A stretch of 64,000 nt of DNA from a virus (IMGVR_UViG_2634166429_000001:1-64000); one strand, 5' to 3'. Shown: positions 53,460-64,000, counted from the stretch's first letter. Numbers and translations are program-made. Notes: generated by a model from the sequence alone, not told the origin.

Positions 53460-53992
53460 CTACAAACGTTCCGGAGGCCGTTCCCGGACGCCTCATCACC
53501 TACACCCACCCCGTCACCAGCCAGGTCCTGCCCGGCATCATCGCCGCCATCGACGAAGGCAACCTGCTTCGGCTGCGGTTCGACGGGCACCGGCTCACCC
53601 TCACCGTGCCGGACGCCACCGACAAGGTCACCTACCTCGACATGGGGACCCTGCCCGCACCCGACCCGGAGCCGGGGGACCGCTTTCACCCCATCCCGGA
53701 GGAGCTCACCGGCGCCTGGCAGAGGATCCCGGTCCACCAGTTCGACACGGGTGAGCTGATCGCACTGACCGACGACCACGACCAGGCGGTGGCGGCACTG
53801 ACCGCGTTCCGTGTGTCGCAGGGCTGGGAGCCGGAGCTCGTCGACCTCACCGCGCTCGAGCTGGCCTACGCGGCATTCGAGTGGCTGCCCGAGGACGCCG
53901 GCACCGCCTGGTCCATGACGCCCGCGGTGGAGGGCGACGACCAGGCCATCCACCTGCACCGCCTGCCCGTCCCGCCCATGGAAGACGAATGA
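53456..53992 (+). CDS. Hypothetical protein
   Basis: ATGA coupling. Confidence 0.6.
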   Translation: MTTNVPEAVPGRLITYTHPVTSQVLPGIIAAIDEGNLLRLRFDGHRLTLTVPDATDKVTYLDMGTLPAPDPEPGDRFHPIPEELTGAWQRIPVHQFDTGELIALTDDHDQAVAALTAFRVSQGWEPELVDLTALELAYAAFEWLPEDAGTAWSMTPAVEGDDQAIHLHRLPVPPMEDE

Positions 53993-54015
53993 GCCCCCAC
54001 AGGAGGTACCACCGC

Positions 54016-54813
54016 ATGACCGCAACACCCGAAACCGAGACCATCACGACCCAGACCCCCGAGGAGCTTCTGGCGGAACTGGCTCAGCTACACATCCGCA
54101 CCATCGTTCCCCCGTCCCCGAAGCAGCTGGCCGCTTTCGGGTGGCAGGCCATCGCGGGTTGCCAGGCTGCCGGGTTCGCCCGTGCCCTGCACGTCCTGAT
54201 GGAGACGGCCCCGGACAAGGCTGCGGAGATCACCGACTGGTTCCAGGGGCCGTTCGAGGAGGGACCGGACCCGGAGGAGCACACGGACTGGATCGCACGG
54301 ACCGTGGCGCAGGACGTGAACGTGCTGGACCAGTGGATCACGGAGGCTCGGGAGCTCGCCGTGAAGTCCGCGGAAGCGACAGCGGAGCGCGAGGCCGGCG
54401 AGGTCGAACGCGACGCCGTTCACAAGCACTTCGGCCTGTCGTACGCGAATTACCTGGTCCTGCCGCGCACGCTGCTCCAGTCGATGCCCGACGAGTGGCA
54501 GACCAAGTTCGTGGCGCTGCTGAAGGTCCTCGAGGACGCGTTCGCGCACGTGCCGCAGGCCGACGTGTACGACGTCACCGCGGGCAAGGAAGACCTCCTG
54601 CGGGACATGACCGAGTCCGAGCTCTACCAGGCTGGCGTTGAGGTCACCGGCGACGACGACCTCGGGCACGGCCCGGACACCGTGTACCGCAGAATCAAGA
54701 CCGGTGAGGAGCTGGACGGCGACTCGTACGGCTTCCGCCCGGGCAAGGACCCAGTGCCGCACTACAACCGGGGACGCGCCCGTGTGGAGCCGCGCCTGGG
54801 CGGTGGCGAGTGA
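54016..54813 (+). CDS. Hypothetical phage protein ('FGLSYANYLVLPRTLLQSMPDEWQ')
   Basis: AGGAGG RBS; conserved-looking phage motif. Confidence 0.7.
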   Translation: MTATPETETITTQTPEELLAELAQLHIRTIVPPSPKQLAAFGWQAIAGCQAAGFARALHVLMETAPDKAAEITDWFQGPFEEGPDPEEHTDWIARTVAQDVNVLDQWITEARELAVKSAEATAEREAGEVERDAVHKHFGLSYANYLVLPRTLLQSMPDEWQTKFVALLKVLEDAFAHVPQADVYDVTAGKEDLLRDMTESELYQAGVEVTGDDDLGHGPDTVYRRIKTGEELDGDSYGFRPGKDPVPHYNRGRARVEPRLGGGE

Positions 54814-55382
54814 GCGTCCTGACGCTGATGCCGGCGGACACGGAGCTGGACGTGCACGTGGAGCAGACGCGGGACCTCGCCGGAGGAACCGCCGCTGCCG
54901 TATTCGACAGCCCCGCCCGCACCTACCGGTACCTCCTCACCCGAATCTGGGACCCCACCACCAAGCCCCTCGTGGTCCTGATGCTCAACCCCAGCACCGC
55001 GAACGCCCTGACCGACGATCCGACCATCCGCCGCCTGGCCGGCCCAACCGGGTTCGCCCGCCGAGAGCAGGCGGGGGGAGTGGTCGTCGTCAACCTGTTC
55101 GCGCTGTGTTCCCCGGACCCGCGGGACCTGGCCCGGCACCCCGACCCGGTCGGCCGGTACGCGGACGTGTTCATACGGACTGCCGCAGCCATGGGGGACG
55201 CGGTGGTGGTGGCGTGGGGTGCGTTCCCGGTAGCGGCGGAGCGCAGCCAGGTCGTGGTGGAGGGTCTGCGCGGGCGTGGCGTGCGTCTGCTGTGTCTGGG
55301 GACGACGTCGAAGGGGCTACCGCGGCATCCGCTGTACCTGCCGGGTGCGGCGGCCCTCGAGCCGTACGGGGTGACGGCGTGA
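54810..55382 (+). CDS. DUF1643 family protein
   Basis: 'YRYLLTRIW','MLNPSTA..DDPTIRR','VNLFA','AWG','PRHPLY'. Confidence 0.88.
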   Translation: MSVLTLMPADTELDVHVEQTRDLAGGTAAAVFDSPARTYRYLLTRIWDPTTKPLVVLMLNPSTANALTDDPTIRRLAGPTGFARREQAGGVVVVNLFALCSPDPRDLARHPDPVGRYADVFIRTAAAMGDAVVVAWGAFPVAAERSQVVVEGLRGRGVRLLCLGTTSKGLPRHPLYLPGAAALEPYGVTA

Positions 55383-55759
55383 CCGCCCCAGTCCAGGCGG
55401 GCCCGACGTCCTCGAGCGTCGGGCCCGTCCGTCCTCTCACCCAGCAGGAACTGGCTGTCCTCCAGTACGTCTCGGAGGGTCTGACGTACTTGGAGATAGC
55501 TGAGAGGACGGGGTACAGCCGCAACGGGGTCCTGAAGACCAGCACGCGGATCCTGCGGAAGCTGGATGCCAAGAGCCAGGCGCACGCCGTGTTCTTGGCC
55601 TGTCAGGCCGGGATTCTCGATCCGAAGCGCCGTCACGGAGACCATGCCGGGTTCGCCGCTCACCAATACCGCGGCGAGGAGCCGTGCGACCGGTGTTGGG
55701 ACGGCGAGCGGGAGTACCGGCGGGAGCGCCGTGCAGCCCGGAAAGCCAACGCAGCGTAG
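55379..55759 (+). CDS. LuxR-type HTH protein with C-terminal Cys motif
   Basis: 'LTQQELAVL..GLTYLEIA..ILRKL..HAV','HG..H..EEPCDRC'. Confidence 0.8.
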   Translation: MTAPVQAGPTSSSVGPVRPLTQQELAVLQYVSEGLTYLEIAERTGYSRNGVLKTSTRILRKLDAKSQAHAVFLACQAGILDPKRRHGDHAGFAAHQYRGEEPCDRCWDGEREYRRERRAARKANAA

Positions 55760-55865
55760 CCGGACTGCACCTGTGAACCGGACATCTTAGACACGTCCGT
55801 CGGCCTGATACCCGGCCCGTCCGAGTCCCGCTTACCCACCGTCACATCCGCCCCGTGGAGGGCCC

Positions 55866-56102
55866 ATGCTCCGCAAATACCTGCCCGTCATCACCTCCAC
55901 CGTCTTCTTCGTCGGCTTCGGCATCACCTTCGGCATCCTCTGGTGGGCTGTCACAGGCCGTACCAGCCCGCCCTGGTGGCTGGGCGTCCTCCTCGTCGCG
56001 GTCGCCGCGTTCATAGCCGACCTGGCCGAGCAGGCCGTACGCGCCATCCGCGGCCGCCGTAACCGGACGGGGCCCACCCCGCGGCACCGTAAGGCCGTGT
56101 GA
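55866..56102 (+). CDS. Small membrane protein
   Basis: Two TM segments; GGAGG RBS. Confidence 0.65.
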   Translation: MLRKYLPVITSTVFFVGFGITFGILWWAVTGRTSPPWWLGVLLVAVAAFIADLAEQAVRAIRGRRNRTGPTPRHRKAV

Positions 56103-56311
56103 TGGGCGCCGCCCGTACCGACTGCCCGTCCTGCCTGAAGCCCGTGCTCATGTCCGAGTACGGGCGCCTGGACGAGCACGGCAGCCCGCGCTGTGAACGG
56201 TCCGGGAAACGCGTGGGCCGCATCTGGCCTGCCAAGCACTTCGGCCGACGTGTGCAGACCGTGCCCGGCCCCGACACCTGGAACCCCACCGCCCTCGAAG
56301 GAGCAGCATGA
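56099..56311 (+). CDS. Small Cys-containing protein
   Basis: Coupled ORF. Confidence 0.5.
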   Translation: MMGAARTDCPSCLKPVLMSEYGRLDEHGSPRCERSGKRVGRIWPAKHFGRRVQTVPGPDTWNPTALEGAA

Positions 56312-56490
56312 CCAGCAGAGCAGCCCATTTCGCGGCCGCCTACGCCGCACTCACGGCAGCGCACGAGGTCGCCGACCACTGGGTCCAAATCGACGACCAG
56401 GCCGTCCACAAGGGCGGGGCCGGGCGCGACGGCGTGATCGCCTGCGCCGGGCACGTCATCACCTACACCGCCACGCAGGCTGTCGCAGCT
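56308..56490 (+). pseudogene. 5' fragment of DUF3307-like membrane protein
   Basis: 'AHEVADHWVQ..QAVHKG..HV' then reading frame degenerates. Confidence 0.65.
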
Positions 56491-56843
56491 GGCGTGCCGG
56501 CTCGATGCATCCGACGTGTCTGGTGCGGGGGCGGGTGCACTGCGGGACGGAGGACCGGCATGGGCAGGTGGAGGCGGTGGCCCGGTATGCGGTCGGGGTG
56601 GGGCGGGTGCTGGGGATGCCGGGCGGGTCGGTGTGGCCGCTTCTGGTGGTGCACGGCTCTGCGGTGGCCGGCGGGGAGCTGGCGCCGAACGTGGTGGTGG
56701 AGGGGTGGTCGGGTCCGGTGTACGTGTTGTCCGCGGACCGTCTCGTGTCCCGGCTGGCGGCCGCGCCGAAGGGGGTTCGGGATCCGGTGCGGGCTGCTGC
56801 GGTCGCGGGGAGGGTCGATCAGGTGCTGCGCCCCTACCATTGA
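56490..56843 (+). pseudogene. 3' fragment of NERD-like nuclease-related protein
   Basis: Different frame 'GRVHCG..VWPLLVVHGSAVAGG..LRPY' with no start. Confidence 0.55.
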
Positions 56844-56885
56844 GCACAGCCAGGGCGTACGGTGATCGCACGCCTGGGGGGCACT

Positions 56886-56923
56886 CGCCCGTCACCTGTT
56901 TGCGCAGGTGGCGGGCGTTTTTT
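56886..56923 (+). terminator. Intrinsic terminator
   Basis: CGCCCGTCACCTG-N6-CAGGTGGCGGGCG-TTTTTT. Confidence 0.85.
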
Positions 56924-56936
56924 CATGCCCGTAGGA

Positions 56937-56952
56937 TCGAACGCGTGAACGA
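56937..56952. promoter_or_regulatory. LexA (SOS) box overlapping TAGGAT -10
   Basis: TCGAAC-GCGT-GAACGA fits actinobacterial TCGAAC-N4-GNNCGA. Confidence 0.65.
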
Positions 56953-56953
56953 T

Positions 56954-57283
56954 ATGTCGACAAGTGAGCGTCTCGCGAAGCAGCGCACCCTGGAGGAGTG
57001 GCTGGTCTGGCAGCTGGCCCAGACCCGGCAGACGATCCGCACGCTGGAGGTGCAGGAGGAGCGGGAGAAGCGTCAGGCGGAACGGGCGTGGGTGGAAGCC
57101 CGGTGGAAGCTGGAGCCGGCCCGGAACCGCCGGTCGGTGCTGCATCGGGGCGGGTGCGGGATCTGGAAGGGCGAGGCGGGGTTCCTGGAGCGGGGCGAAG
57201 TACTGCTGGCGCTGGGGGACGACAGTCTGGTGGTGGAGATGTGCGGGGTGTGCAACCCGGAGCCGGGACTGCGGCAGCCGTAG
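56954..57283 (+). CDS. DUF6233-like protein
   Basis: 'VLHRGGC...CGVCNPE'; alternative leaderless GTG start at 56945. Confidence 0.75.
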   Translation: MSTSERLAKQRTLEEWLVWQLAQTRQTIRTLEVQEEREKRQAERAWVEARWKLEPARNRRSVLHRGGCGIWKGEAGFLERGEVLLALGDDSLVVEMCGVCNPEPGLRQP

Positions 57284-57313
57284 ACGTGACACCTACCGAC
57301 AACGCGCAGGCGT

Positions 57314-58075
57314 TCAGGCCTTGCGGAGGGTGTAGTTCGCCAGCATCTGCTTCAGCCCCGGAAGGTCGAACGGCGGCGTGAACCGGCCGGCGTCGACCGG
57401 GTTGTAGTAGCCGCCGTTCGGCGCGCACATCAGGGGCCGGGTGCCGGTCGCGGTGGTCACGCACTCGTACGACTCCACGGTCCCGTCCTTGTCGCGATCC
57501 TCGTTGGGATGGTCCAGGCCCAGGACATGCCCGAGTTCATGCGTGACCGCGTTCTTCCTGTACCCCTCGTTCTTCGTCGCGTCCGTGGAGAACCAGGCGG
57601 GGGTCGACCAGTACTCGGAGTCGACGAGGACGTGGCCTCCCCAGGCTGAGCCGTCTGCGACGGCGTAGCAGGGGCGTCCCTGGCTGACGCCGGTCTGGCC
57701 GGTGGGCCGGTAGGTGTAGTGGACGACGATGCGGTGGTAGGTGGGGCAGGAGGTTGCGGGGGTGGTGTCGAGGAGGGTGGAGACGGTGATGGGGACGCCG
57801 ACGTCGGTGGTGACCTGGTTGGCGGGTGCGGTGAAGTACGCGGCGAGTTTGGTGCGGGCTGTGTCGTCGGCGAACACGATGGTGTACCGGTCGGGGGACA
57901 GGCTGTACACGCCGGCCGATGTGAATGCCTTCCATCCGTTCCCTGCGTAGACGGGCCCGGTTGCGCCGTGGGCGGGTGGTGCGGAGGCGGTGAGGAGGGC
58001 CAGGACGGCGACGAGTGCGGCGGTCAGGGCGGTGACGATACGGCGCGTACTGGGACGCGAAGGGGTGGAAGGCAT
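57314..58075 (-). CDS. Secreted zinc metalloprotease (metzincin/matrixin-like)
   Basis: Signal peptide ending AHG; HELGHVLGLDH; Met-turn 'PLM'. Confidence 0.85.
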   Translation of the reverse strand: MPSTPSRPSTRRIVTALTAALVAVLALLTASAPPAHGATGPVYAGNGWKAFTSAGVYSLSPDRYTIVFADDTARTKLAAYFTAPANQVTTDVGVPITVSTLLDTTPATSCPTYHRIVVHYTYRPTGQTGVSQGRPCYAVADGSAWGGHVLVDSEYWSTPAWFSTDATKNEGYRKNAVTHELGHVLGLDHPNEDRDKDGTVESYECVTTATGTRPLMCAPNGGYYNPVDAGRFTPPFDLPGLKQMLANYTLRKA

Positions 58076-58082
58076 GCCCTTC

Positions 58083-58117
58083 AGTCTGGGCACGAAACCG
58101 GGACGTGTTGCCCCTGC
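58083..58117 (-). promoter_or_regulatory. Phage promoter motif A copy 3: GCAGGGGCAACACG-N15-CAGACT-N7-ATG
   Basis: Leaderless geometry for the protease gene. Confidence 0.75.
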
Positions 58118-58293
58118 TCAAACGGGGCCGGGTGTGCGTGTGGCCCGGTCCCACAGGGAGGACCGGGCCACGTTTCCCTGGCACGCGACGCGGATTGCGG
58201 CCGGGAGCCTTGTGGCTGGCGCCGCTACGGGGGACGAGACGGCGCCAGCTCCGTTCGGGAGTCTGCCACGCGGCACTGACAACGCGGGACGGT

Positions 58294-58758
58294 TCAGGCG
58301 GGAATCCACTCGTCGTTCAGGCGGACCAGAGGCGTGGGGCACCACGTGCAGATGCCGGGAGTCTGGGTGTCACCGACCTGGGGAACCTCGATGACGTCCT
58401 CGTGCCCGCACTCCGGTACGACCGTGCCCATGTCAGGGCGCAGCGCCTCGAGAACGTGGAGGAGCTGTAGGAGGGCGTAGTCGTTGGACTTCGCGGTCGT
58501 GGTCAGCGCGTCGACGTCCGCGGCCAGGAGACGGTAGGCGGGGAAGTCGTAGGTGGCTGCGTCGGTGCCGTCGCTGTACAGGTCGTACGGGTGTTCTTCC
58601 AGCTCGAGGTGGAGGTACGGGAAGTCCTCGTTGGTGACGTGGAGGGAGGATTCGGCGAGGTAGCCGGCGTCGGTGGAGCCGTCTGAGGTGATGTAGAGGC
58701 GGCGGTCTCCTGCGAGGCGGCGCAGGCGTACGGGCGAGCGGACCTGGAATTTGGGCAT
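58294..58758 (-). CDS. Hypothetical protein
   Basis: TGATG coupling with HAD gene; C-terminal Cys motifs. Confidence 0.6.
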   Translation of the reverse strand: MPKFQVRSPVRLRRLAGDRRLYITSDGSTDAGYLAESSLHVTNEDFPYLHLELEEHPYDLYSDGTDAATYDFPAYRLLAADVDALTTTAKSNDYALLQLLHVLEALRPDMGTVVPECGHEDVIEVPQVGDTQTPGICTWCPTPLVRLNDEWIPA

Positions 58759-59138
58759 CACATCACCTGGGCTAGGTCGAGCAGGGCCTGGTCCCAGGTG
58801 GTGAAGCGGATGCCGCGGTCGTCGATGTAGGCGATGGCGGGCAGCTTCCGGTCGGTGACGAGGAGGACGCCGGTTTCGTTCCAGAACTCGCGCTTCGGGT
58901 GGTCGGGCCCGGGAACGTCGACCATGGTGTCGAATCCGTGGTCGGCGAGCCAACAGGCGACGGTGGTGGCGTCGCGGGTGGTGTGGATGAAGACGGCGTA
59001 CGTCTTGGTCAGATGCTCGAGGGCTTCAAGGGTGCCGGGGAGGGGCGGGTCGTAGATGGTGCCGTCTTGCCAGCCGCGGCTGTAGGCGTGGATGACGCCG
59101 TCGAAGTCGATGGCGAGGGTTTGGGGGTGGGAGCTCAT
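58758..59138 (-). CDS. HAD-superfamily hydrolase (nucleotidase-like)
   Basis: 'AIDFDGVIH','IHTTR','RKLPAIAYIDDRG'. Confidence 0.8.
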   Translation of the reverse strand: MSSHPQTLAIDFDGVIHAYSRGWQDGTIYDPPLPGTLEALEHLTKTYAVFIHTTRDATTVACWLADHGFDTMVDVPGPDHPKREFWNETGVLLVTDRKLPAIAYIDDRGIRFTTWDQALLDLAQVM

Positions 59139-59145
59139 GGGCTCT

Positions 59146-59180
59146 ACCGTCCCGCTGATCCGCCGTCGTGTTGCCCCTGC
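59146..59180 (-). promoter_or_regulatory. Phage promoter motif A copy 4: GCAGGGGCAACACG-N15-GACGGT-N7-ATG
   Basis: Leaderless geometry for the HAD gene. Confidence 0.75.
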
Positions 59181-59232
59181 CCGGGGCCCGGCAGGGTGCT
59201 GGGGGCACGTCCTGCCGGGCCGGCCGTGGGTG

Positions 59233-59418
59233 TCAGCCCCACCAGGTGTCGAGGGGGGCGACTGTCGGCAGTTCGATCGTCGCGTCGGCGGTGGTGGTGT
59301 CGACGGTGACCGTGGTGGTGGTCTCGGCGGCGTGCGCGGTCGCGGTGAGTGCGGTGCCGGTGAGGGTGGCGGTGGTGAGGGCTGCGGTGGCCAGGATGCG
59401 GCGCAGGGTGGGCTTCAC
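59233..59418 (-). CDS. Small secreted pro-peptide (61 aa) ending DTWWG
   Basis: AAAGGGA RBS; basic N-region, Ala/Thr/Leu core, AHA|A cleavage site; 3' hairpin at about 59186-59220. Confidence 0.75.
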   Translation of the reverse strand: MKPTLRRILATAALTTATLTGTALTATAHAAETTTTVTVDTTTADATIELPTVAPLDTWWG

Positions 59419-59700
59419 GAGCGGTCCCTTTCTGGGCGTCAGCAGGGTCGGTAGGGATGCTGATGGGGCGTCTTGCCCGGTGTGTCGTACTCTGATCCGC
59501 TGCGATCCCCATGTCCGGGTGCGTGTTCTGGCAGTAGACGCGCGAGGGTGTTGGGGAGGATGTGGAGTACGAGCGCCGGGGGACGCCCCGCAGCTAATTT
59601 GCCTTACGCTGGTTCGACTCTCAACTGTTGTCGTGTGCGTGTGTGTGCATTGCGTGTTGGTGCAGTCGTGCGGTTTGTTTTGGGCGGGGGATCATAAGCG

Positions 59701-60780
59701 TTGGCCATAGATTTCGGTAAGGGTGACGCAGGGTGTTTGTCTCCGGCTGCCGTGGACGCGTTCGCGCTGATCGCGGCCGGTGAGGACCCATCGGAGCGGA
59801 TGCCTGACGCGGTCGCCGAACTGTTGGAACTCGGTTTGGTGGTGCGGGATGTGCGGGAGGGTCACCGGCTGGTCCCGTTGAATCCGCGGGATGTTCTCCG
59901 ACGCCGCATGATGATCGAATTCGGGGCGTTGGACGACTGCCTGTCCCGCATGCGGAGCCTGCCCGGGACGGTGTTGGCGCTCGAGGACGCTTTCGAGCGT
60001 TCCCAGCTGCATGCCGGTGGCCGATCCGAGTTCATTCCGGATCCGGTGGTGGTGAATGCGCGTCTTCAGGATGTGGTGGGCGGTGCGCAGTTCGAGATCC
60101 TGGCGGCGCAGCCGGCCGGGCCGCGGACGAAGGAGCACCTGGAGGCGGGCAGGGGCCGGGACACTGACGCTTTAGAACGCGGTGTCACGCTTCGGACCCT
60201 GTACCGGGCGACTGTCCGCGACAACCCGGTGACGGCGGAGCATGCCCGGATGATGGCCAACCGGCCCGACGGGCGGTCAGCCGAGTTCCGTACGCTCGCC
60301 GAACCGTTCGAGCGGGCCATCATCGTCGACCGCCGGACGGCGTTCATCTCGAACACGGTTGTGCCGGGCGCGCACGAAAACTCGGCGTGGCAGATCACTG
60401 ACGGGGCTTTCGTCGCGTACGTCGTCTCGGAATTCGAATCCCGGTGGAAGCGGGCAGACCCCTGGTTCGGGGAGCTCCGGCCGCGCACGGGCTGGCCGGC
60501 CGTCGACACGGTGTCCGGGGCCCAGGGCGTACGGACGACGAAAGAGGAGCGGGAGATCCTGCGGGAACTGTGCTCGGGCCGGGACCAGAAGGGCGCCGCA
60601 CGGCAGTTGGGAATCTCCCTGCGCACGTTCAACGCGAAGGTCGCGAAGTTGCGGGAGCTGTTCGATGCGGAGTCGGTCCCGGAGCTGACTTTCAAGTGGG
60701 CGCTATCGCCGGACCGGCACGTCGACGACAGCGAAGGCGGCACGGCAGCCGCGGGCGAGGCCGGGTTATCCGCCGCCTAG
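59701..60780 (+). CDS. TrmB-like/PLD-fold sensor plus LuxR HTH regulator, with two TTA codons
   Basis: 'LLELGLV','ALERGVTLRTLY','IIVDRRTAF', C-terminal 'EREIL..AARQLGISLRT'; TTA at 60172 and 60766. Confidence 0.85.
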   Translation: MAIDFGKGDAGCLSPAAVDAFALIAAGEDPSERMPDAVAELLELGLVVRDVREGHRLVPLNPRDVLRRRMMIEFGALDDCLSRMRSLPGTVLALEDAFERSQLHAGGRSEFIPDPVVVNARLQDVVGGAQFEILAAQPAGPRTKEHLEAGRGRDTDALERGVTLRTLYRATVRDNPVTAEHARMMANRPDGRSAEFRTLAEPFERAIIVDRRTAFISNTVVPGAHENSAWQITDGAFVAYVVSEFESRWKRADPWFGELRPRTGWPAVDTVSGAQGVRTTKEEREILRELCSGRDQKGAARQLGISLRTFNAKVAKLRELFDAESVPELTFKWALSPDRHVDDSEGGTAAAGEAGLSAA

Positions 60781-60787
60781 GACCTTC

Positions 60788-61549
60788 TCAAGCATCTGCG
60801 CCCTCGAGGTCGGCGCCGCCCAGCACAAGGCGCAGGCGGGCGCGCTGCGGGATGGGGTCCTTGCCAGGAGTAGGCCAGTTGTCGGCCACAACGCCGTACG
60901 TCTTCGACGGTTCCCAGAAACTGTCGATCTTCCACACCGCGGCCTCCTTGTACAGGCGGGCCCAGGCCTCCTCCTGCCCCTCAGCCATGAGGTACGAGGT
61001 GATGAGTCCGCCCGCGTTCGGGATGGGTTCCGGTCCAGGGTTGGCCAGACGCTGGGCCCGGAGGTCGCGCCCCCACGGTTCGTGACGTCGGCAGTACCAG
61101 ACCGCGGTCCGCCACCCAGTCTCCTGGTCGACGGTGTAGTCCCGGTCGGTGGCGTGCTGCCCGCACAGGCCGGCGCGCCGGATCATGGGCGCTGCGCAGA
61201 CCCGCTGCCCCCATTCGACGTGCTTGTCTTCGTAGCGGGGCCGGTCTGCGTATACGAGGTCGGCGAGGCGGGATCCTCGGCGCGGTCCTGGGCCGTACTC
61301 TCCGAGGATCTTCGAGGCGCGTTTCCTCCAGCTGATCTGGGTGCCGTCGGTGTCGTAGCGGTCGGGGTCGCGTGCGGACAGCCAGGCGAGGAGGAGGATC
61401 AGTTCACGGGCTTCTGGGGTCATGCGCTGGTCTTGGTAGACGCGGGCTACGAGAGCGTCGTAGCCGTCGCCTCCGCTGCCGCCGCCCTTCCTCTTCCGCT
61501 TCCGCACGGGCGCCTGCTGGACGTGCGCGAGGTGCAGGGCTGCTCCCAC
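60788..61549 (-). CDS. Hypothetical protein
   Basis: GAGGAGG RBS; Cys motifs. Confidence 0.7.
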   Translation of the reverse strand: MGAALHLAHVQQAPVRKRKRKGGGSGGDGYDALVARVYQDQRMTPEARELILLLAWLSARDPDRYDTDGTQISWRKRASKILGEYGPGPRRGSRLADLVYADRPRYEDKHVEWGQRVCAAPMIRRAGLCGQHATDRDYTVDQETGWRTAVWYCRRHEPWGRDLRAQRLANPGPEPIPNAGGLITSYLMAEGQEEAWARLYKEAAVWKIDSFWEPSKTYGVVADNWPTPGKDPIPQRARLRLVLGGADLEGADA

Positions 61550-61550
61550 G

Positions 61551-61949
61551 TCAGTCCTCCTCGTCGGTGATGGCTTCGATGCGCAGGCCGGGCTGTTGGC
61601 CGTTCACGGTGTGGCAGTGTCCGTCGGGTGACGTGACGACGAAGTCGAGGCCGCGGTTGCCGGCGCTGGACCACTGCCAGGCGTCGGCGATCTCGCCCTC
61701 GTAGATGACGCGGACGCGTGTGCCCTTCCGGGCGAGCGCACGGAGGCGGGCTTCCTCGTCGCTGAGGGCGTGCATGGGGCGGGGTTTCGGTGCGTGCATG
61801 ACGGTGACCTGGGTGGGGTGCAGGCCGGGTACGGGGTTTGGGCACTTGCAGGCGACCTGCTCGGGGTCGGGCGGTTCGACCTTGCAGGACTTGTCGCAGG
61901 ATCGGCAGTACCAGACCAGGAGCGTCGTCTCGGACATTGGCTCGGTCAT
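61551..61949 (-). CDS. Hypothetical protein
   Basis: GGAGG RBS; CxxC motifs. Confidence 0.6.
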   Translation of the reverse strand: MTEPMSETTLLVWYCRSCDKSCKVEPPDPEQVACKCPNPVPGLHPTQVTVMHAPKPRPMHALSDEEARLRALARKGTRVRVIYEGEIADAWQWSSAGNRGLDFVVTSPDGHCHTVNGQQPGLRIEAITDEED

Positions 61950-61951
61950 CG

Positions 61952-62521
61952 TCAGCCCTCCCGTCCCGGTCGGCGAGCTTGGCGGACAGCGCGGGCCACG
62001 GAACGGCCGACTTCCGCAGCGTCCTGCGGTTCGGCGGGCACGCTGACGGTGGTCTTGCTGCTGCGCCCGGAGTACCAGGGCAGGGCCAGGCCGTCGTTCT
62101 CCGCTCGCGGCACTAGGTGCAGGTGGAGGTGCCAGACACTCTGAGTCGCTTCTCTGCCCTTGCTGGTGATCAGGTTCATGGGGCTGCGCATCTGATTGCC
62201 GAGGAGAGCGGCCTTGGCCATGGTCCGGGCCGCAACGTAGGTGGAGGCCGTGAAGTCCTCTACGTGCGTCTTCGGAATGACGAGGGTATGTCCTTCCACG
62301 ACGGGGTTGTGGGGGACGATGGCGATGACGTCGTCCCACTCGCGGACGATCGTGGCGGGTGCTTCGCCGGCGACGATGTCGCAGAACGGGCAGCCGGGCT
62401 TGGCTACGCGTTCGGGGAAGTAGACCAGGCCCTTGTTGTAGCTGGGGTGGGCCGGGTTGGCGAGGCATACGGCGGGGTCGGCGTCCTTGCAGTGCCAGCA
62501 TGCGTGAGCGGCGTCGGTCAT
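61952..62521 (-). CDS. HIT-family nucleotide hydrolase
   Basis: 'CPFCDIVAG','GHTLVIPK','QSVWHLHLHLVPR'. Confidence 0.88.
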   Translation of the reverse strand: MTDAAHACWHCKDADPAVCLANPAHPSYNKGLVYFPERVAKPGCPFCDIVAGEAPATIVREWDDVIAIVPHNPVVEGHTLVIPKTHVEDFTASTYVAARTMAKAALLGNQMRSPMNLITSKGREATQSVWHLHLHLVPRAENDGLALPWYSGRSSKTTVSVPAEPQDAAEVGRSVARAVRQARRPGREG

Positions 62522-62964
62522 CGGGCGTCTCCGCGGGTGATGTGGTGGATGGCGTCGGCGGCCGTCTTGGTGAGGATCGTGTCGGGGAGGCGTTCGAGCC
62601 AGGCGAGGGCCATTTGGTCCAGGCGGGCCACCTTCCGTTCGGCTTCCTCGCCGGCTCGGAGGTGGGCGTTGATGCTGGCGTTGAGCGGCGCCCCGAAGCG
62701 GTGGGCGCGGGCGATCTGCTGGAGGGCGTCCCAGAACGCGCGGGCGGCGGTGTCGGGGGTGTAGTCGGGCCCGTATTCGAGGCGGCCGTCGGGGTGGATG
62801 GTGACGAGCGTGGTCCCATTGCGGCCTTGGACGCTGATGCTGTCGGGGGTGACGGGGCTGGCGGCCCACTGCTGGACGGCGCTGCTGGTGATGTACGTTG
62901 CGGCGGCGCTGAGGTCGTGGTCGAGGGGCGTGGTGCTGGTGTCGGGGGTGCTGGAGTCGCTCAC
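62518..62964 (-). CDS. Hypothetical protein
   Basis: Coupled; AAGGAG RBS. Confidence 0.6.
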   Translation of the reverse strand: MSDSSTPDTSTTPLDHDLSAAATYITSSAVQQWAASPVTPDSISVQGRNGTTLVTIHPDGRLEYGPDYTPDTAARAFWDALQQIARAHRFGAPLNASINAHLRAGEEAERKVARLDQMALAWLERLPDTILTKTAADAIHHITRGDAR

Positions 62965-63557
62965 GGTGTGGTGGGCTCCTTGTTCTCGAGGGCGGGGCAG
63001 GTGGGGTGCTGCTGGAGGGCTTGGTCGATTGCGAACGGGTGGTCGTACAGGCTTGACGGGGGCAACCAGCTCTCGCCGCGGGCCGGGCAGGTCTTGCACT
63101 TCCAGAACTCGCCGTTCCGGTCCCGTTCCAGGGTGAAGCGGTCGTAGAACGGAGCGAGTTTCGCTGCCCGGCGGGTCCAGATGGTGGTGCGGGTCTTGTA
63201 CTCGCGGTAGGTGGATCCGCTGCCGGTTTCGGGCTGGTCTACGGCTCGGTTCCATCCGGGCTGGTAGTCGGGGTGGGTTCGCCAGATGCGTGCGAGGCCG
63301 GTCATGGTCAGGCAGGGGACGCCTCCGGCGGAGGGGCTGCATGTTCGGCATCGGCCTGCGGATTGGCCGCGGAGGTCGATCCAGATGTTGTGCTGGGAGG
63401 CGATGAGGTAGAGGGAGTCGATGCGGTTGGACTCGGCGTCACGGGCGGGACCGGGCGGCATCTCGTCGGCAGCAGCCTGGGCGTCGGCGAGGCGGGCGTA
63501 GACGAAGTCCTCGCAGCGGAACTCCCACCGCCAGTGCGGGTCATCGGGGCCCGTCAT
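62961..63557 (-). CDS. Hypothetical protein (DUF6221-like 'HPDYQPGW')
   Basis: Coupled ORF. Confidence 0.6.
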   Translation of the reverse strand: MTGPDDPHWRWEFRCEDFVYARLADAQAAADEMPPGPARDAESNRIDSLYLIASQHNIWIDLRGQSAGRCRTCSPSAGGVPCLTMTGLARIWRTHPDYQPGWNRAVDQPETGSGSTYREYKTRTTIWTRRAAKLAPFYDRFTLERDRNGEFWKCKTCPARGESWLPPSSLYDHPFAIDQALQQHPTCPALENKEPTTP

Positions 63558-63943
63558 TCGTCATCCTCGGGGTCGTCGGCGCATCCGCAGCGGACTCCGC
63601 CCTGATGCTTGGGCGGGTCGGCGGGGACCAGGCGGAGGTTGGGGCAGCCCTCGGGGAAGCCTGGGCATCGCTCGATGGTGGCGACGGCGGGGTACAGGTC
63701 GGGGAAGGCGAAGCAGGCGTTGACGACGTCGGCCAGGATCGCCTTGTTCAGGGGGATCTCTTCGTTCTTCGGGTGCATGCTGCCGCGGACGTAGCCCATG
63801 ACGGCAATGTCTTGGACCAGGGCTCGTTCGCGGGCGGTGAGGTTGTTGAGGAAGTCGCGGATCCTGGCTGTGCGGGCGGCTTCCCGCTTTGTGAAGTAGT
63901 CGGCCAGTTCCGCCGTGACGTGGGGCTCGCGGTAGTCGGTCAA
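63554..63943 (-). CDS. Hypothetical protein
   Basis: TTG start after GGAG. Confidence 0.6.
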   Translation of the reverse strand: MTDYREPHVTAELADYFTKREAARTARIRDFLNNLTARERALVQDIAVMGYVRGSMHPKNEEIPLNKAILADVVNACFAFPDLYPAVATIERCPGFPEGCPNLRLVPADPPKHQGGVRCGCADDPEDDE

Positions 63944-64000
63944 AGTGACTCCAGGGTGGGCTGTAGGTAGAAGAGGGGGATGGTTTCCTGGCCGGGGAGT

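Follow-up and report, generated by a model that had tools for sequence, protein, structure and literature searches.

A stretch of viral DNA, IMGVR_UViG_2634166429_000001:1-64000 (64,000 nucleotides in all, referred to here as the window), carries between positions 57,314 and 60,780 a small gene for a predicted secreted peptide ending in D-T-W-W-G, which is divergent from a gene for a DNA-binding regulator. We interpret this pair as a two-gene cassette of peptide signal and receptor, built on a receptor of a non-RRNPP type, and assign this interpretation a probability of about 0.55. It is the most economical reading because the pair forms a self-contained module, the regulator has the fold of a ligand-binding protein, the secreted product carries repeated units, its free C-terminus is kept, and the peptides occur in dialects that change from clade to clade. 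The window is part of a 93,135-base IMG/VR virus record that is rated complete. Its DNA has a G+C content of about 69%, and its large open reading frames (ORFs) match PHROG families for a major tail protein, a tape measure protein, Dit, minor tail proteins, an endolysin, an integrase and a ParB-like protein. The part from 57 to 61 kb matches 86–94 kb Streptomyces plasmids, among them pSLE1 of S. leeuwenhoekii, which the authors who reported it describe as syntenic with the plasmid-phage pZL12 (PMC4487206); these matches indicate that the element in the window is a pZL12-type plasmid-phage of Streptomyces. The features of the cassette, in window coordinates, are given below.

59185-59224, minus strand: GC-rich, terminator-like hairpin without a U tract, folding just past the peptide stop
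59233-59418, minus strand: pro-peptide gene, 61 amino acids (aa), GTG start, with a signal peptide, a Thr/acidic spacer containing a decayed internal repeat, and a C-terminal LDTWWG
59236-59250, minus strand: codons of the C-terminal D-T-W-W-G, with the stop codon (59233-59235) directly after
59329-59418, minus strand: predicted signal peptide, residues 1-30, with cleavage after A-H-A, read from the translation
59419-59700, no strand assigned: divergent control region with conserved boxes, 282 bp between the peptide and regulator starts
59528-59539, no strand assigned: CTGGCAGTAGAC box, conserved, flanking the core
59578-59589, no strand assigned: GGGGGACGCCCC core, invariant in 28 aligned loci
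59701-60780, plus strand: regulator gene, 359 aa, TTG start (one database entry begins at residue 18)
59743-60012, plus strand: winged helix-turn-helix (HTH; residues 15-59) and long helix (62-104), TrmB/TrmBL2-like by AlphaFold2, Foldseek and profile
60025-60456, plus strand: PLD-fold alpha/beta domain (residues 109-252), the proposed sensor, from Foldseek; no invariant His or Lys
60541-60720, plus strand: C-terminal LuxR/GerE-type HTH (residues 281-340), from Pfam and profile A1

The small gene has the layout of a secreted precursor. The product begins with positive charge followed by a hydrophobic Ala/Thr/Leu stretch that leads to A-H-A|A at residues 28–31, and an alignment of homologues (A3) showed that the K/R-rich start and the hydrophobic stretch are kept in all of them; the window's signal peptide was read by eye, and simple rules were applied to the others. 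The sequence AAGGGA is found 6 nt ahead of the GTG start, with the reservation that start codons of small ORFs are uncertain. Past the stop, the hairpin has a main stem of about 14 pairs, and the 63 nt there fold with an energy of −40.3 kcal/mol (z −2.9 versus windows of the same locus); a similar stem was found 3′ of the homologous ORF in 26 of 45 loci (z < −1.5), and a simple terminator scan did not list the window's hairpin. GC by codon position in the ORF (0.58/0.66/0.92) resembles that of the neighboring genes. The initial annotation had described a 61-aa ORF with a signal-like start, a Thr/acidic spacer, an LDTWWG end, its own ribosome-binding site and a 3′ hairpin, placed head-to-head with the regulator (59418-59233 on the minus strand against 59701-60780 on the plus strand), and each of these elements was recovered. 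The peptide had no significant match in Pfam, NCBIfam or PHROGs, and one database relative carries the source label "exported protein of unknown function".

Conservation is concentrated at the end of the peptide. In A3 the D and W were invariant, and T and G were conserved at 90% or more. Relatives carry D-T-x-W-G (x being T, A, G or W, with DSTWG found as well), usually in two or three copies of which the last is C-terminal. A profile built from 27 such peptides and searched against a large protein collection retrieved 137 proteins, all unnamed or "hypothetical" and none with a Pfam family. Among the best 120 of these 137, exactly D-[TS]-x-W-G closed the sequence in 114 (by type, DTAWG in 50, DTTWG in 28, DTGWG in 26, DSGWG in 8 and DTWWG in 2), in agreement with the conserved D-x-x-W-G C-terminus that had been expected, and 118 held two to four copies (one copy in 2 proteins, two in 45, three in 71, four in 2). 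In the same 120 proteins, AP[DA] or TPP came after internal copies, and TPL was the most frequent sequence in front of the last one. Multi-copy pheromone precursors are laid out in this way. The spacer of the window's peptide aligns with a decayed internal copy, and its single-copy DTWWG is a rare, derived form. At the DNA level, 30 loci showed 16 different 18-nt motif tails, in which synonymous codons encode Thr and Gly and each of the three stop codons occurs right behind the Gly; the constraint therefore acts on the peptide and its free C-terminus. The Trp was invariant across all motif variants.

The regulator was modeled with AlphaFold2 from an alignment of 38 homologues, giving a predicted local distance difference test (pLDDT) score of 85. 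After residue 252 the model continues into a low-confidence or disordered linker and then a four-helix HTH. Foldseek ranked TrmBL2 first (E 2e-11) and TrmB second (1.5e-7); PLD-fold nucleases and phospholipases came next (from 2e-6), then the sugar-binding domain of TrmB (1e-4). For residues 109–252 the structures found were 1byr (Nuc, E 2e-6) and 2f5t (TrmB sugar-binding domain, E 1e-4). Profile A1, built from the family, matched TrmBL2 over positions 22–247 (E 1.6e-3) and the HTH domains of RhlR, NarL, GerE and FixJ (E 2e-5 to 7e-3). The single sequence matched Pfam GerE with E 3e-4 and 20.7 bits, under the cut-off of 23.5, and PF00196 was present in many of its homologues, while the PLD-fold region gave weak Pfam matches to DUF7436/TbsP_N. 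The Pfam TrmB model, PF01978, was not among the matches of the window's regulator; 10–15% of the members of two look-alike Atlas clusters carry it. Pfam and NCBIfam scans of the regulator found no TPR family, and the protein has no membrane segment. AlphaFold2, Foldseek and A1 thus agree on the TrmB-like, PLD-fold and LuxR-type HTH order that the initial annotation had read from the sequence. Because the invariant alignment columns contain no His and no Lys, the PLD-fold domain is not a catalytic HKD domain. We collected 87 close homologues, and the N-terminal extension is conserved among homologues.

One feature at the end of the regulator was recorded separately. A C-terminal Ala-Ala (window 60772-60780) is shared by 71 of the 87 close homologues, and the final Ala by 83; the distant homologues on chromosomes and large plasmids do not end in Ala-Ala. 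This end resembles that of the SsrA tag and of ClpP-degraded Streptomyces regulators, and because of this likeness the plasmid-phage regulators may be kept unstable through proteolysis.

The pairing of the two genes is conserved well beyond the window. We scanned 50 loci around regulator homologues (4 annotated plasmids, 31 genome contigs and 15 viral contigs) with a script that detects a small ORF with a signal-like start and a product ending in a Trp motif. Exactly one such ORF lay beside the regulator in 48 of the 50 loci, or in 44 of 46 when four duplicate records are subtracted, so that the neighboring small secreted ORFs on which the initial annotation had staked its claim were present; the two exceptions were L035 and L010, the latter with a regulator match that does not include the N-terminal part. 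Within the plasmid-phage family, the peptide ORF is divergent and lies 180–470 bp upstream of the regulator, and in Kitasatospora chromosomes it is convergent and just downstream. Regulators at just 26–36% identity also adjoin a small secreted ORF, each with a Trp motif of its own. The motifs seen at these loci were as follows.

Phage Chymera, gene 30, divergent from gene 29 and beside the integrase: two copies of DPGWG
Large plasmids: two copies of DSAWG; two of DSDWG; four of DIQW[GR]; two of SISWGG; three of GIGWD; one DDQWG that is not at the end
Viral contig L051: three copies of D[ST]GWN
L036: LDWEWG
L007: FDTCWC
L022: four copies of DTGW[TS]
Kitasatospora chromosomes: DTIWN, DTAWT, HQWT and DISWT

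Eight of these loci are on large plasmids, one of them with a doubtful ORF and one with an insertion sequence (IS) element at the place of the peptide gene. The motif varies from one regulator clade to another, through DTTWG, DTAWG/DTGWG, DPGWG, DSAWG, DSDWG, DIQWG, SISWGG, GIGWD, DTIWN, HQWT, DTGWN and DTWGWG, and a tree of 87 regulators gave each motif class its own clade. This is a quick tree, made with FastTree from tblastn segments; it omits L036 (segment too short), L003 (match in two pieces), copies of the window, the four duplicates and overlapping fetches, and its row L075 is labeled "none" although that locus carries a peptide with two copies of DSTWG. Different dialects also occur within one genome: a Kitasatospora genome holds 8 regulator paralogues and at least 4 cassettes with different peptides, and in one Streptomyces genome a DTWWG cassette of the plasmid-phage coexists with a DSTWG cassette on the chromosome. 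In the contexts examined, the pair was not accompanied by any conserved gene for a modifying enzyme or a transporter. The family is common: of 61 Streptomycetaceae genomes sampled, 49 carry a regulator homologue (E ≤ 1e-25), and a single genome can have as many as 13, often in tandem arrays. Among 29 best-hit loci taken from other genomes, 12 had an adjacent secreted ORF with the motif (7 C-terminal, 5 internal). The cassette is not phage-specific, its family being spread over phages, plasmids and chromosomes of Streptomycetaceae.

Between the two genes lies a control region that is conserved more strongly than either of them. The 12-mer CGGGGGACGCCC, which overlaps the core GGGGGACGCCCC, was found in 28 of 31 intergenic regions of the plasmid-phage family. 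Flanking the core are CTGGCAGTAGAC, GGGGAGGA, a TAnnnT box and, ahead of the regulator start, the inverted repeat TGCG..CGCA; the mean column identity over 28 aligned loci (alignment A2) was 69%. RNAalifold predicted 20 pairs, nearly all of them invariant and with any double change in 3, and Rfam gave nothing in the control region, its one sub-threshold match lying on the opposite strand inside the peptide ORF. A structured RNA was accordingly rejected as a candidate, and because the predicted RNA pairs hardly co-vary and Rfam had no match, we read the conserved boxes as predicted protein-binding and promoter sites at the DNA level. The core is invariant in the 28 regions even though the regulators are often just ~40–57% identical to the window's, and it sits at about the −35 position of a rightward promoter that would use the conserved TAnnnT box.

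Beyond the genes, fold, pairing, motif and clade-wise divergence described above, we infer a path of export, processing, uptake, binding and output. Leftward transcription starting in the conserved divergent control region would yield a short unit that contains the small gene and stops at the hairpin, and the product of this gene would be exported via the signal peptide. Extracellular proteases, either those of the host or a metzincin encoded by the element itself where present, would cut the product to a short peptide ending in D-T-W-W-G, which would accumulate with the density of element-carrying cells and be taken up by the oligopeptide permease of the host. Inside the cell, the peptide would bind the PLD-fold domain of the adjacent TrmB-like/LuxR regulator and alter its action on the divergent promoter region and on further targets. 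In the plasmid-phage and in Chymera, the output would probably feed into the decision whether to be maintained as a lysogen or plasmid or to grow lytically. We consider a role in this lysis-lysogeny or plasmid-phage choice less likely than the signal-receptor pairing itself; its main support is the position of the pair beside the integrase of Chymera, an isolated temperate phage.

Several observations weigh against a signal-receptor pair. First, TrmB PLD-like domains are not known to bind peptides. Second, in the unbiased sample of best-hit loci, 17 of 29 regulators had no recognizable peptide ORF within 1.5 kb, a count to be taken as an upper bound since the detector requires a Trp near the end, and regulators also occur in tandem arrays with no peptides between them; the regulator family is therefore not always in need of an adjacent peptide. 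Third, the residue x of the motif is not constant even inside one precursor (L015, L016, L017, L044), and closely related sister regulators are paired with different ones (DTWWG in L020 versus DTAWG in L048), so any role of x in determining specificity is putative. The sole change found to be shared by the four regulators whose peptides have W or C at x was V232I, which is conservative and weak; as a specificity residue it was rejected, both I and V being widespread at this position in A1. Fourth, co-inheritance of linked genes alone would make the motif follow the regulator tree. Lastly, the three conserved boxes, when searched across the window, occurred no more often than in shuffled sequence, and no regulon or switch target was identified. 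Of the co-variation between D-x-x-W-G and the sensor domain that had been predicted, then, the tracking of regulator clades by motif variants stands, and fine-scale co-variation of x was not seen. The broader proposal of a phage quorum system on a non-RRNPP receptor likewise keeps the pairing, the conserved C-terminus and the position beside Chymera's integrase, and finds no support for the co-variation of x or for the protease as a core part.

Among the alternatives, the one that survives best, although we consider it unlikely, is that the regulator just controls the peptide gene and the Trp peptide acts elsewhere, on a surface receptor or kinase, on neighboring cells or on an extracellular enzyme, and is not sensed by the regulator. 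Effects on neighboring cells could include exclusion of related phages or interference with competitors or with development. Divergent pairs are often a regulator and its target, and this explanation can also draw on the 17 of 29 sampled regulator loci that have no adjacent peptide, on the variation of x without a matching change in the regulator, and on the fact that binding between peptide and regulator is itself an inferred step. It has more difficulty with the mobility of the module, which travels as two genes, without a conserved third partner, among chromosomes, large plasmids, plasmid-phages and an integrating phage, and with motif classes that track regulator clades over deep divergence. 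Moreover, several cassettes with different motifs in one genome fit private signal-receptor pairs, and a ligand-domain fold in a cytoplasmic regulator calls for a ligand of some kind.

In a further alternative, which we regard as improbable, the peptide would be a ribosomally made precursor with a modified Trp, either a prenylated pheromone of the ComX type or a multi-core ribosomally synthesized and post-translationally modified peptide (RiPP), in which the repeat is the core peptide, as opposed to a plain linear signal, and the enzymes are encoded elsewhere. The invariance of the Trp in every variant is in keeping with this, as are the many RiPP precursors with repeated cores and the ComX pheromones that center on a modified Trp near the C-terminus. 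Against it, no conserved enzyme gene adjoins the pair in any context examined, the precursor has a Sec-type signal peptide instead of a RiPP leader, and the best match to a RiPP precursor family, TIGR04081, reached 13 bits versus a cut-off of 30.5.

The remaining genes of the segment lie downstream of the peptide gene on the same strand.

57314-58093, minus strand: secreted metzincin-type metalloprotease with HELGHVLGLDH and an N-terminal signal-like segment; accessory, outside the core pair
58294-59138, minus strand: two variable cargo genes (154 aa, no known family; 126 aa, HAD-like)

The initial annotation had noted an HExxHxxGxxH metalloprotease near the pair, and the translation does contain this zinc site of metzincins, with the start of the gene 1.14 kb from the peptide stop; matches to M12, M10 and serralysin families (Reprolysin_5, Peptidase_M10, serralysin) were weak and all under cut-offs. 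The proposal that the protease is integral to the system, forming a protease-substrate pair in which it matures or destroys the signal, fared less well, and we think it has little chance of being correct. In its favor, the protease shares a leftward gene block with the peptide gene, both in the window and at 8 of 51 loci (homologue within the 3-kb flank, 6 of the 8 distinct); 15 of the 16 plasmid records with a homologue are 87–94 kb Streptomyces elements, and 7 of 11 records of plasmid-phage size with a regulator of at least 43% identity also hold one. However, the protease is absent beside the pair in most loci and from the other 4 of these 11 records, five plasmids have it 12–14 kb from the cassette at 28–32% identity, and neither Chymera's locus nor any of the chromosomal and large-plasmid cassettes seen contains it. 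Because the pair exists without it in these settings, the protease is better described as a frequent gene of this phage family than as part of the two-gene module. In its own right, the secreted metzincin family is nearly confined to 87–94 kb Streptomyces plasmids of the plasmid-phage-like kind. The two cargo genes are not conserved parts either, since homologues beyond the window's own copy (L005) were found in just 2 loci for the 154-aa ORF and 0 for the 126-aa ORF.

The weakest explanation, that the small ORF is a chance frame in GC-rich DNA with a meaningless motif, starts from the abundance of spurious ORFs in high-GC DNA (89 ORFs of at least 40 aa overlap 54000-64000) and is refuted by a GC content at third codon positions of 0.92 versus 0.67–0.73 in the overlapping frames, by the ORF being the only motif-ending one among the 962 stop-to-stop segments (30 aa or longer) in the six frames of the whole window, and by the 48 of 50 loci, the 137 proteins and the synonymous variation of the motif.

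As a signal-receptor cassette, the pair invites comparison with known peptide systems. It shares with arbitrium (AimP/AimR/AimX of Bacillus SPbeta-like phages) a phage-borne gene for a small secreted pro-peptide adjacent to the gene of a cytoplasmic DNA-binding receptor, an active part expected at the C-terminus and peptide variants that differ between phage lineages; the Chymera pair, moreover, is in the lysogeny region beside the integrase. It differs in its receptor, which is TrmB-like with a LuxR-type HTH and not a TPR/RRNPP protein, in the phylum of the host (Actinomycetota), in a precursor that usually has two or three motif copies, and in genes that are divergent, not tandem; the search of the window with the conserved boxes found no AimX-like target for the cassette. 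With the RRNPP systems of Firmicutes (Rap/Phr, PlcR/PapR, Rgg/SHP, ComR/XIP) it has in common the two-gene arrangement of propeptide and intracellular receptor, with a small secreted pro-peptide gene in the 10–100 aa range next to the regulator (61 aa, 282 bp from the regulator start). As in Rap/Phr, a single genome can hold numerous paralogous cassettes whose peptides differ, and such cassettes are found on mobile elements too; both kinds of system also rely on short peptides in which aromatic residues are key, as in the double-Trp motif of XIP. The differences are the lack of a TPR domain, the two DNA-binding domains of the receptor and the phylum. The cassette would work like RRNPP systems and arbitrium, but it is not a member of the RRNPP family, since its receptor has no TPR domain.

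Other likenesses concern single parts of the cassette. TrmB and TrmBL2, archaeal sugar-sensing regulators and a chromatin protein, have the winged HTH, long helix and PLD-fold domain in the same order, but the effector domain of TrmB includes a second, C-terminal sugar-binding subdomain, which is replaced here by a LuxR-type HTH, and the regulator described here is paired with a secreted peptide gene. LuxR regulators and LuxR solos share the C-terminal GerE/LuxR-type HTH, and relatives of the regulator are annotated at source as "LuxR C-terminal-related transcriptional regulator"; unlike LuxR regulators, the protein has neither an acyl-homoserine-lactone binding domain nor a receiver domain, its N-terminal two thirds being TrmB-like. 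ComX of Bacillus is likewise a short signal with an invariant Trp near the C-terminus, and yeast alpha-factor likewise has several copies of the mature unit in one secreted precursor. Here, however, no ComQ-like prenyltransferase gene lies beside the pair, the precursor has a Sec-type signal peptide, and the expected receptor is cytoplasmic instead of a membrane kinase or a G-protein-coupled receptor.

A full-text literature search, with most subscription journals and supplements outside its coverage, found no description of the motif or of the pair. As portrayed in a 2023 survey (PMC10075063), cell-cell signals of Actinomycetota are typically small molecules, peptide-receptor cassettes are a trait of Firmicutes, and peptide systems are defined by their TPR receptors. 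RRNPP_detector, as presented there, defines its candidates by hidden Markov models of TPR domains (PMC10075063) and for this reason would miss the family of Trp-peptide cassettes. According to a bioRxiv preprint (10.1101/2021.07.15.452460), the known phage communication systems are all of the propeptide and receptor type and from phages of Bacilli. If the signal-receptor pair is real, the main antibiotic producers and the phages that infect them come within the reach of peptide communication, the known receptor kinds are joined by a new fold, and basic studies and synthetic biology in Streptomyces gain ready-made orthogonal peptide-regulator pairs. A wider reading is more tentative, and we place it slightly short of an even chance: the cassettes would form a large and hitherto undescribed family of linear-peptide pheromone systems across Streptomycetaceae and their temperate phages, plasmid-phages and plasmids, in which a secreted multi-copy D-x-x-W-G/N precursor acts with a TrmB-type PLD-fold receptor, with many private dialects per genome, density-dependent lysis-lysogeny or plasmid-phage decisions set by the phage copies, and possible listening-in by these copies on host cassettes. 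This would amount to a class of peptide quorum sensing with a cytoplasmic receptor outside Firmicutes, and to a second, independent invention of arbitrium-like phage communication.

Several further observations were made at individual loci. In Kitasatospora chromosomes (L024-L034), grpE, dnaJ and an HspR-like gene of the MerR family are followed directly downstream by the DTIWN-type cassette; this position is a fixed core-genome site and not a mobile element. In L054 (NZ_CP108868.1), an ISAs1-family transposase gene is found upstream of the regulator at the place expected for the peptide gene, which makes this locus a possible natural knock-out of the signal gene. Of the cassettes in L058 (NZ_CP108875.1) and L055 (NZ_CP109056.1), one adjoins an AfsA-related gene, of the family for butyrolactone-signal synthesis, and a large LuxR-family regulator, and the other adjoins Lsr2 and a PhlD-type polyketide synthase; these neighbors hint at links with small-molecule signaling and secondary metabolism. 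Tandem arrays of 3–9 regulator paralogues on Streptomycetaceae chromosomes (G005:C1:172890-180774; G044:C1:3709057-3714052; G001:C1:3474670-3479636; G002:C45:9995-12884) have spacings of ~100 bp, with no room for peptide genes, and in G001 and G002 one peptide gene lies at the edge of the array.

In the surroundings of the cassette, the upstream stretch 53881-57283 encodes a DUF1643 protein (54810-55382, E 1e-34) and, by comparison with annotated relatives, also holds HTH, NERD-domain and DUF6233 genes; PADLOC matched 0 of 6 local proteins. The 126-aa HAD-like ORF matched PHROG 1238 (E 8e-12), and its DNA (58758-59138) is alone in the 4-kb stretch in resembling a sequenced phage at the nucleotide level, with 79% identity over ~300 bases to genes 54-55 of Streptomyces phage KimJongPhill, annotated as polynucleotide kinase.

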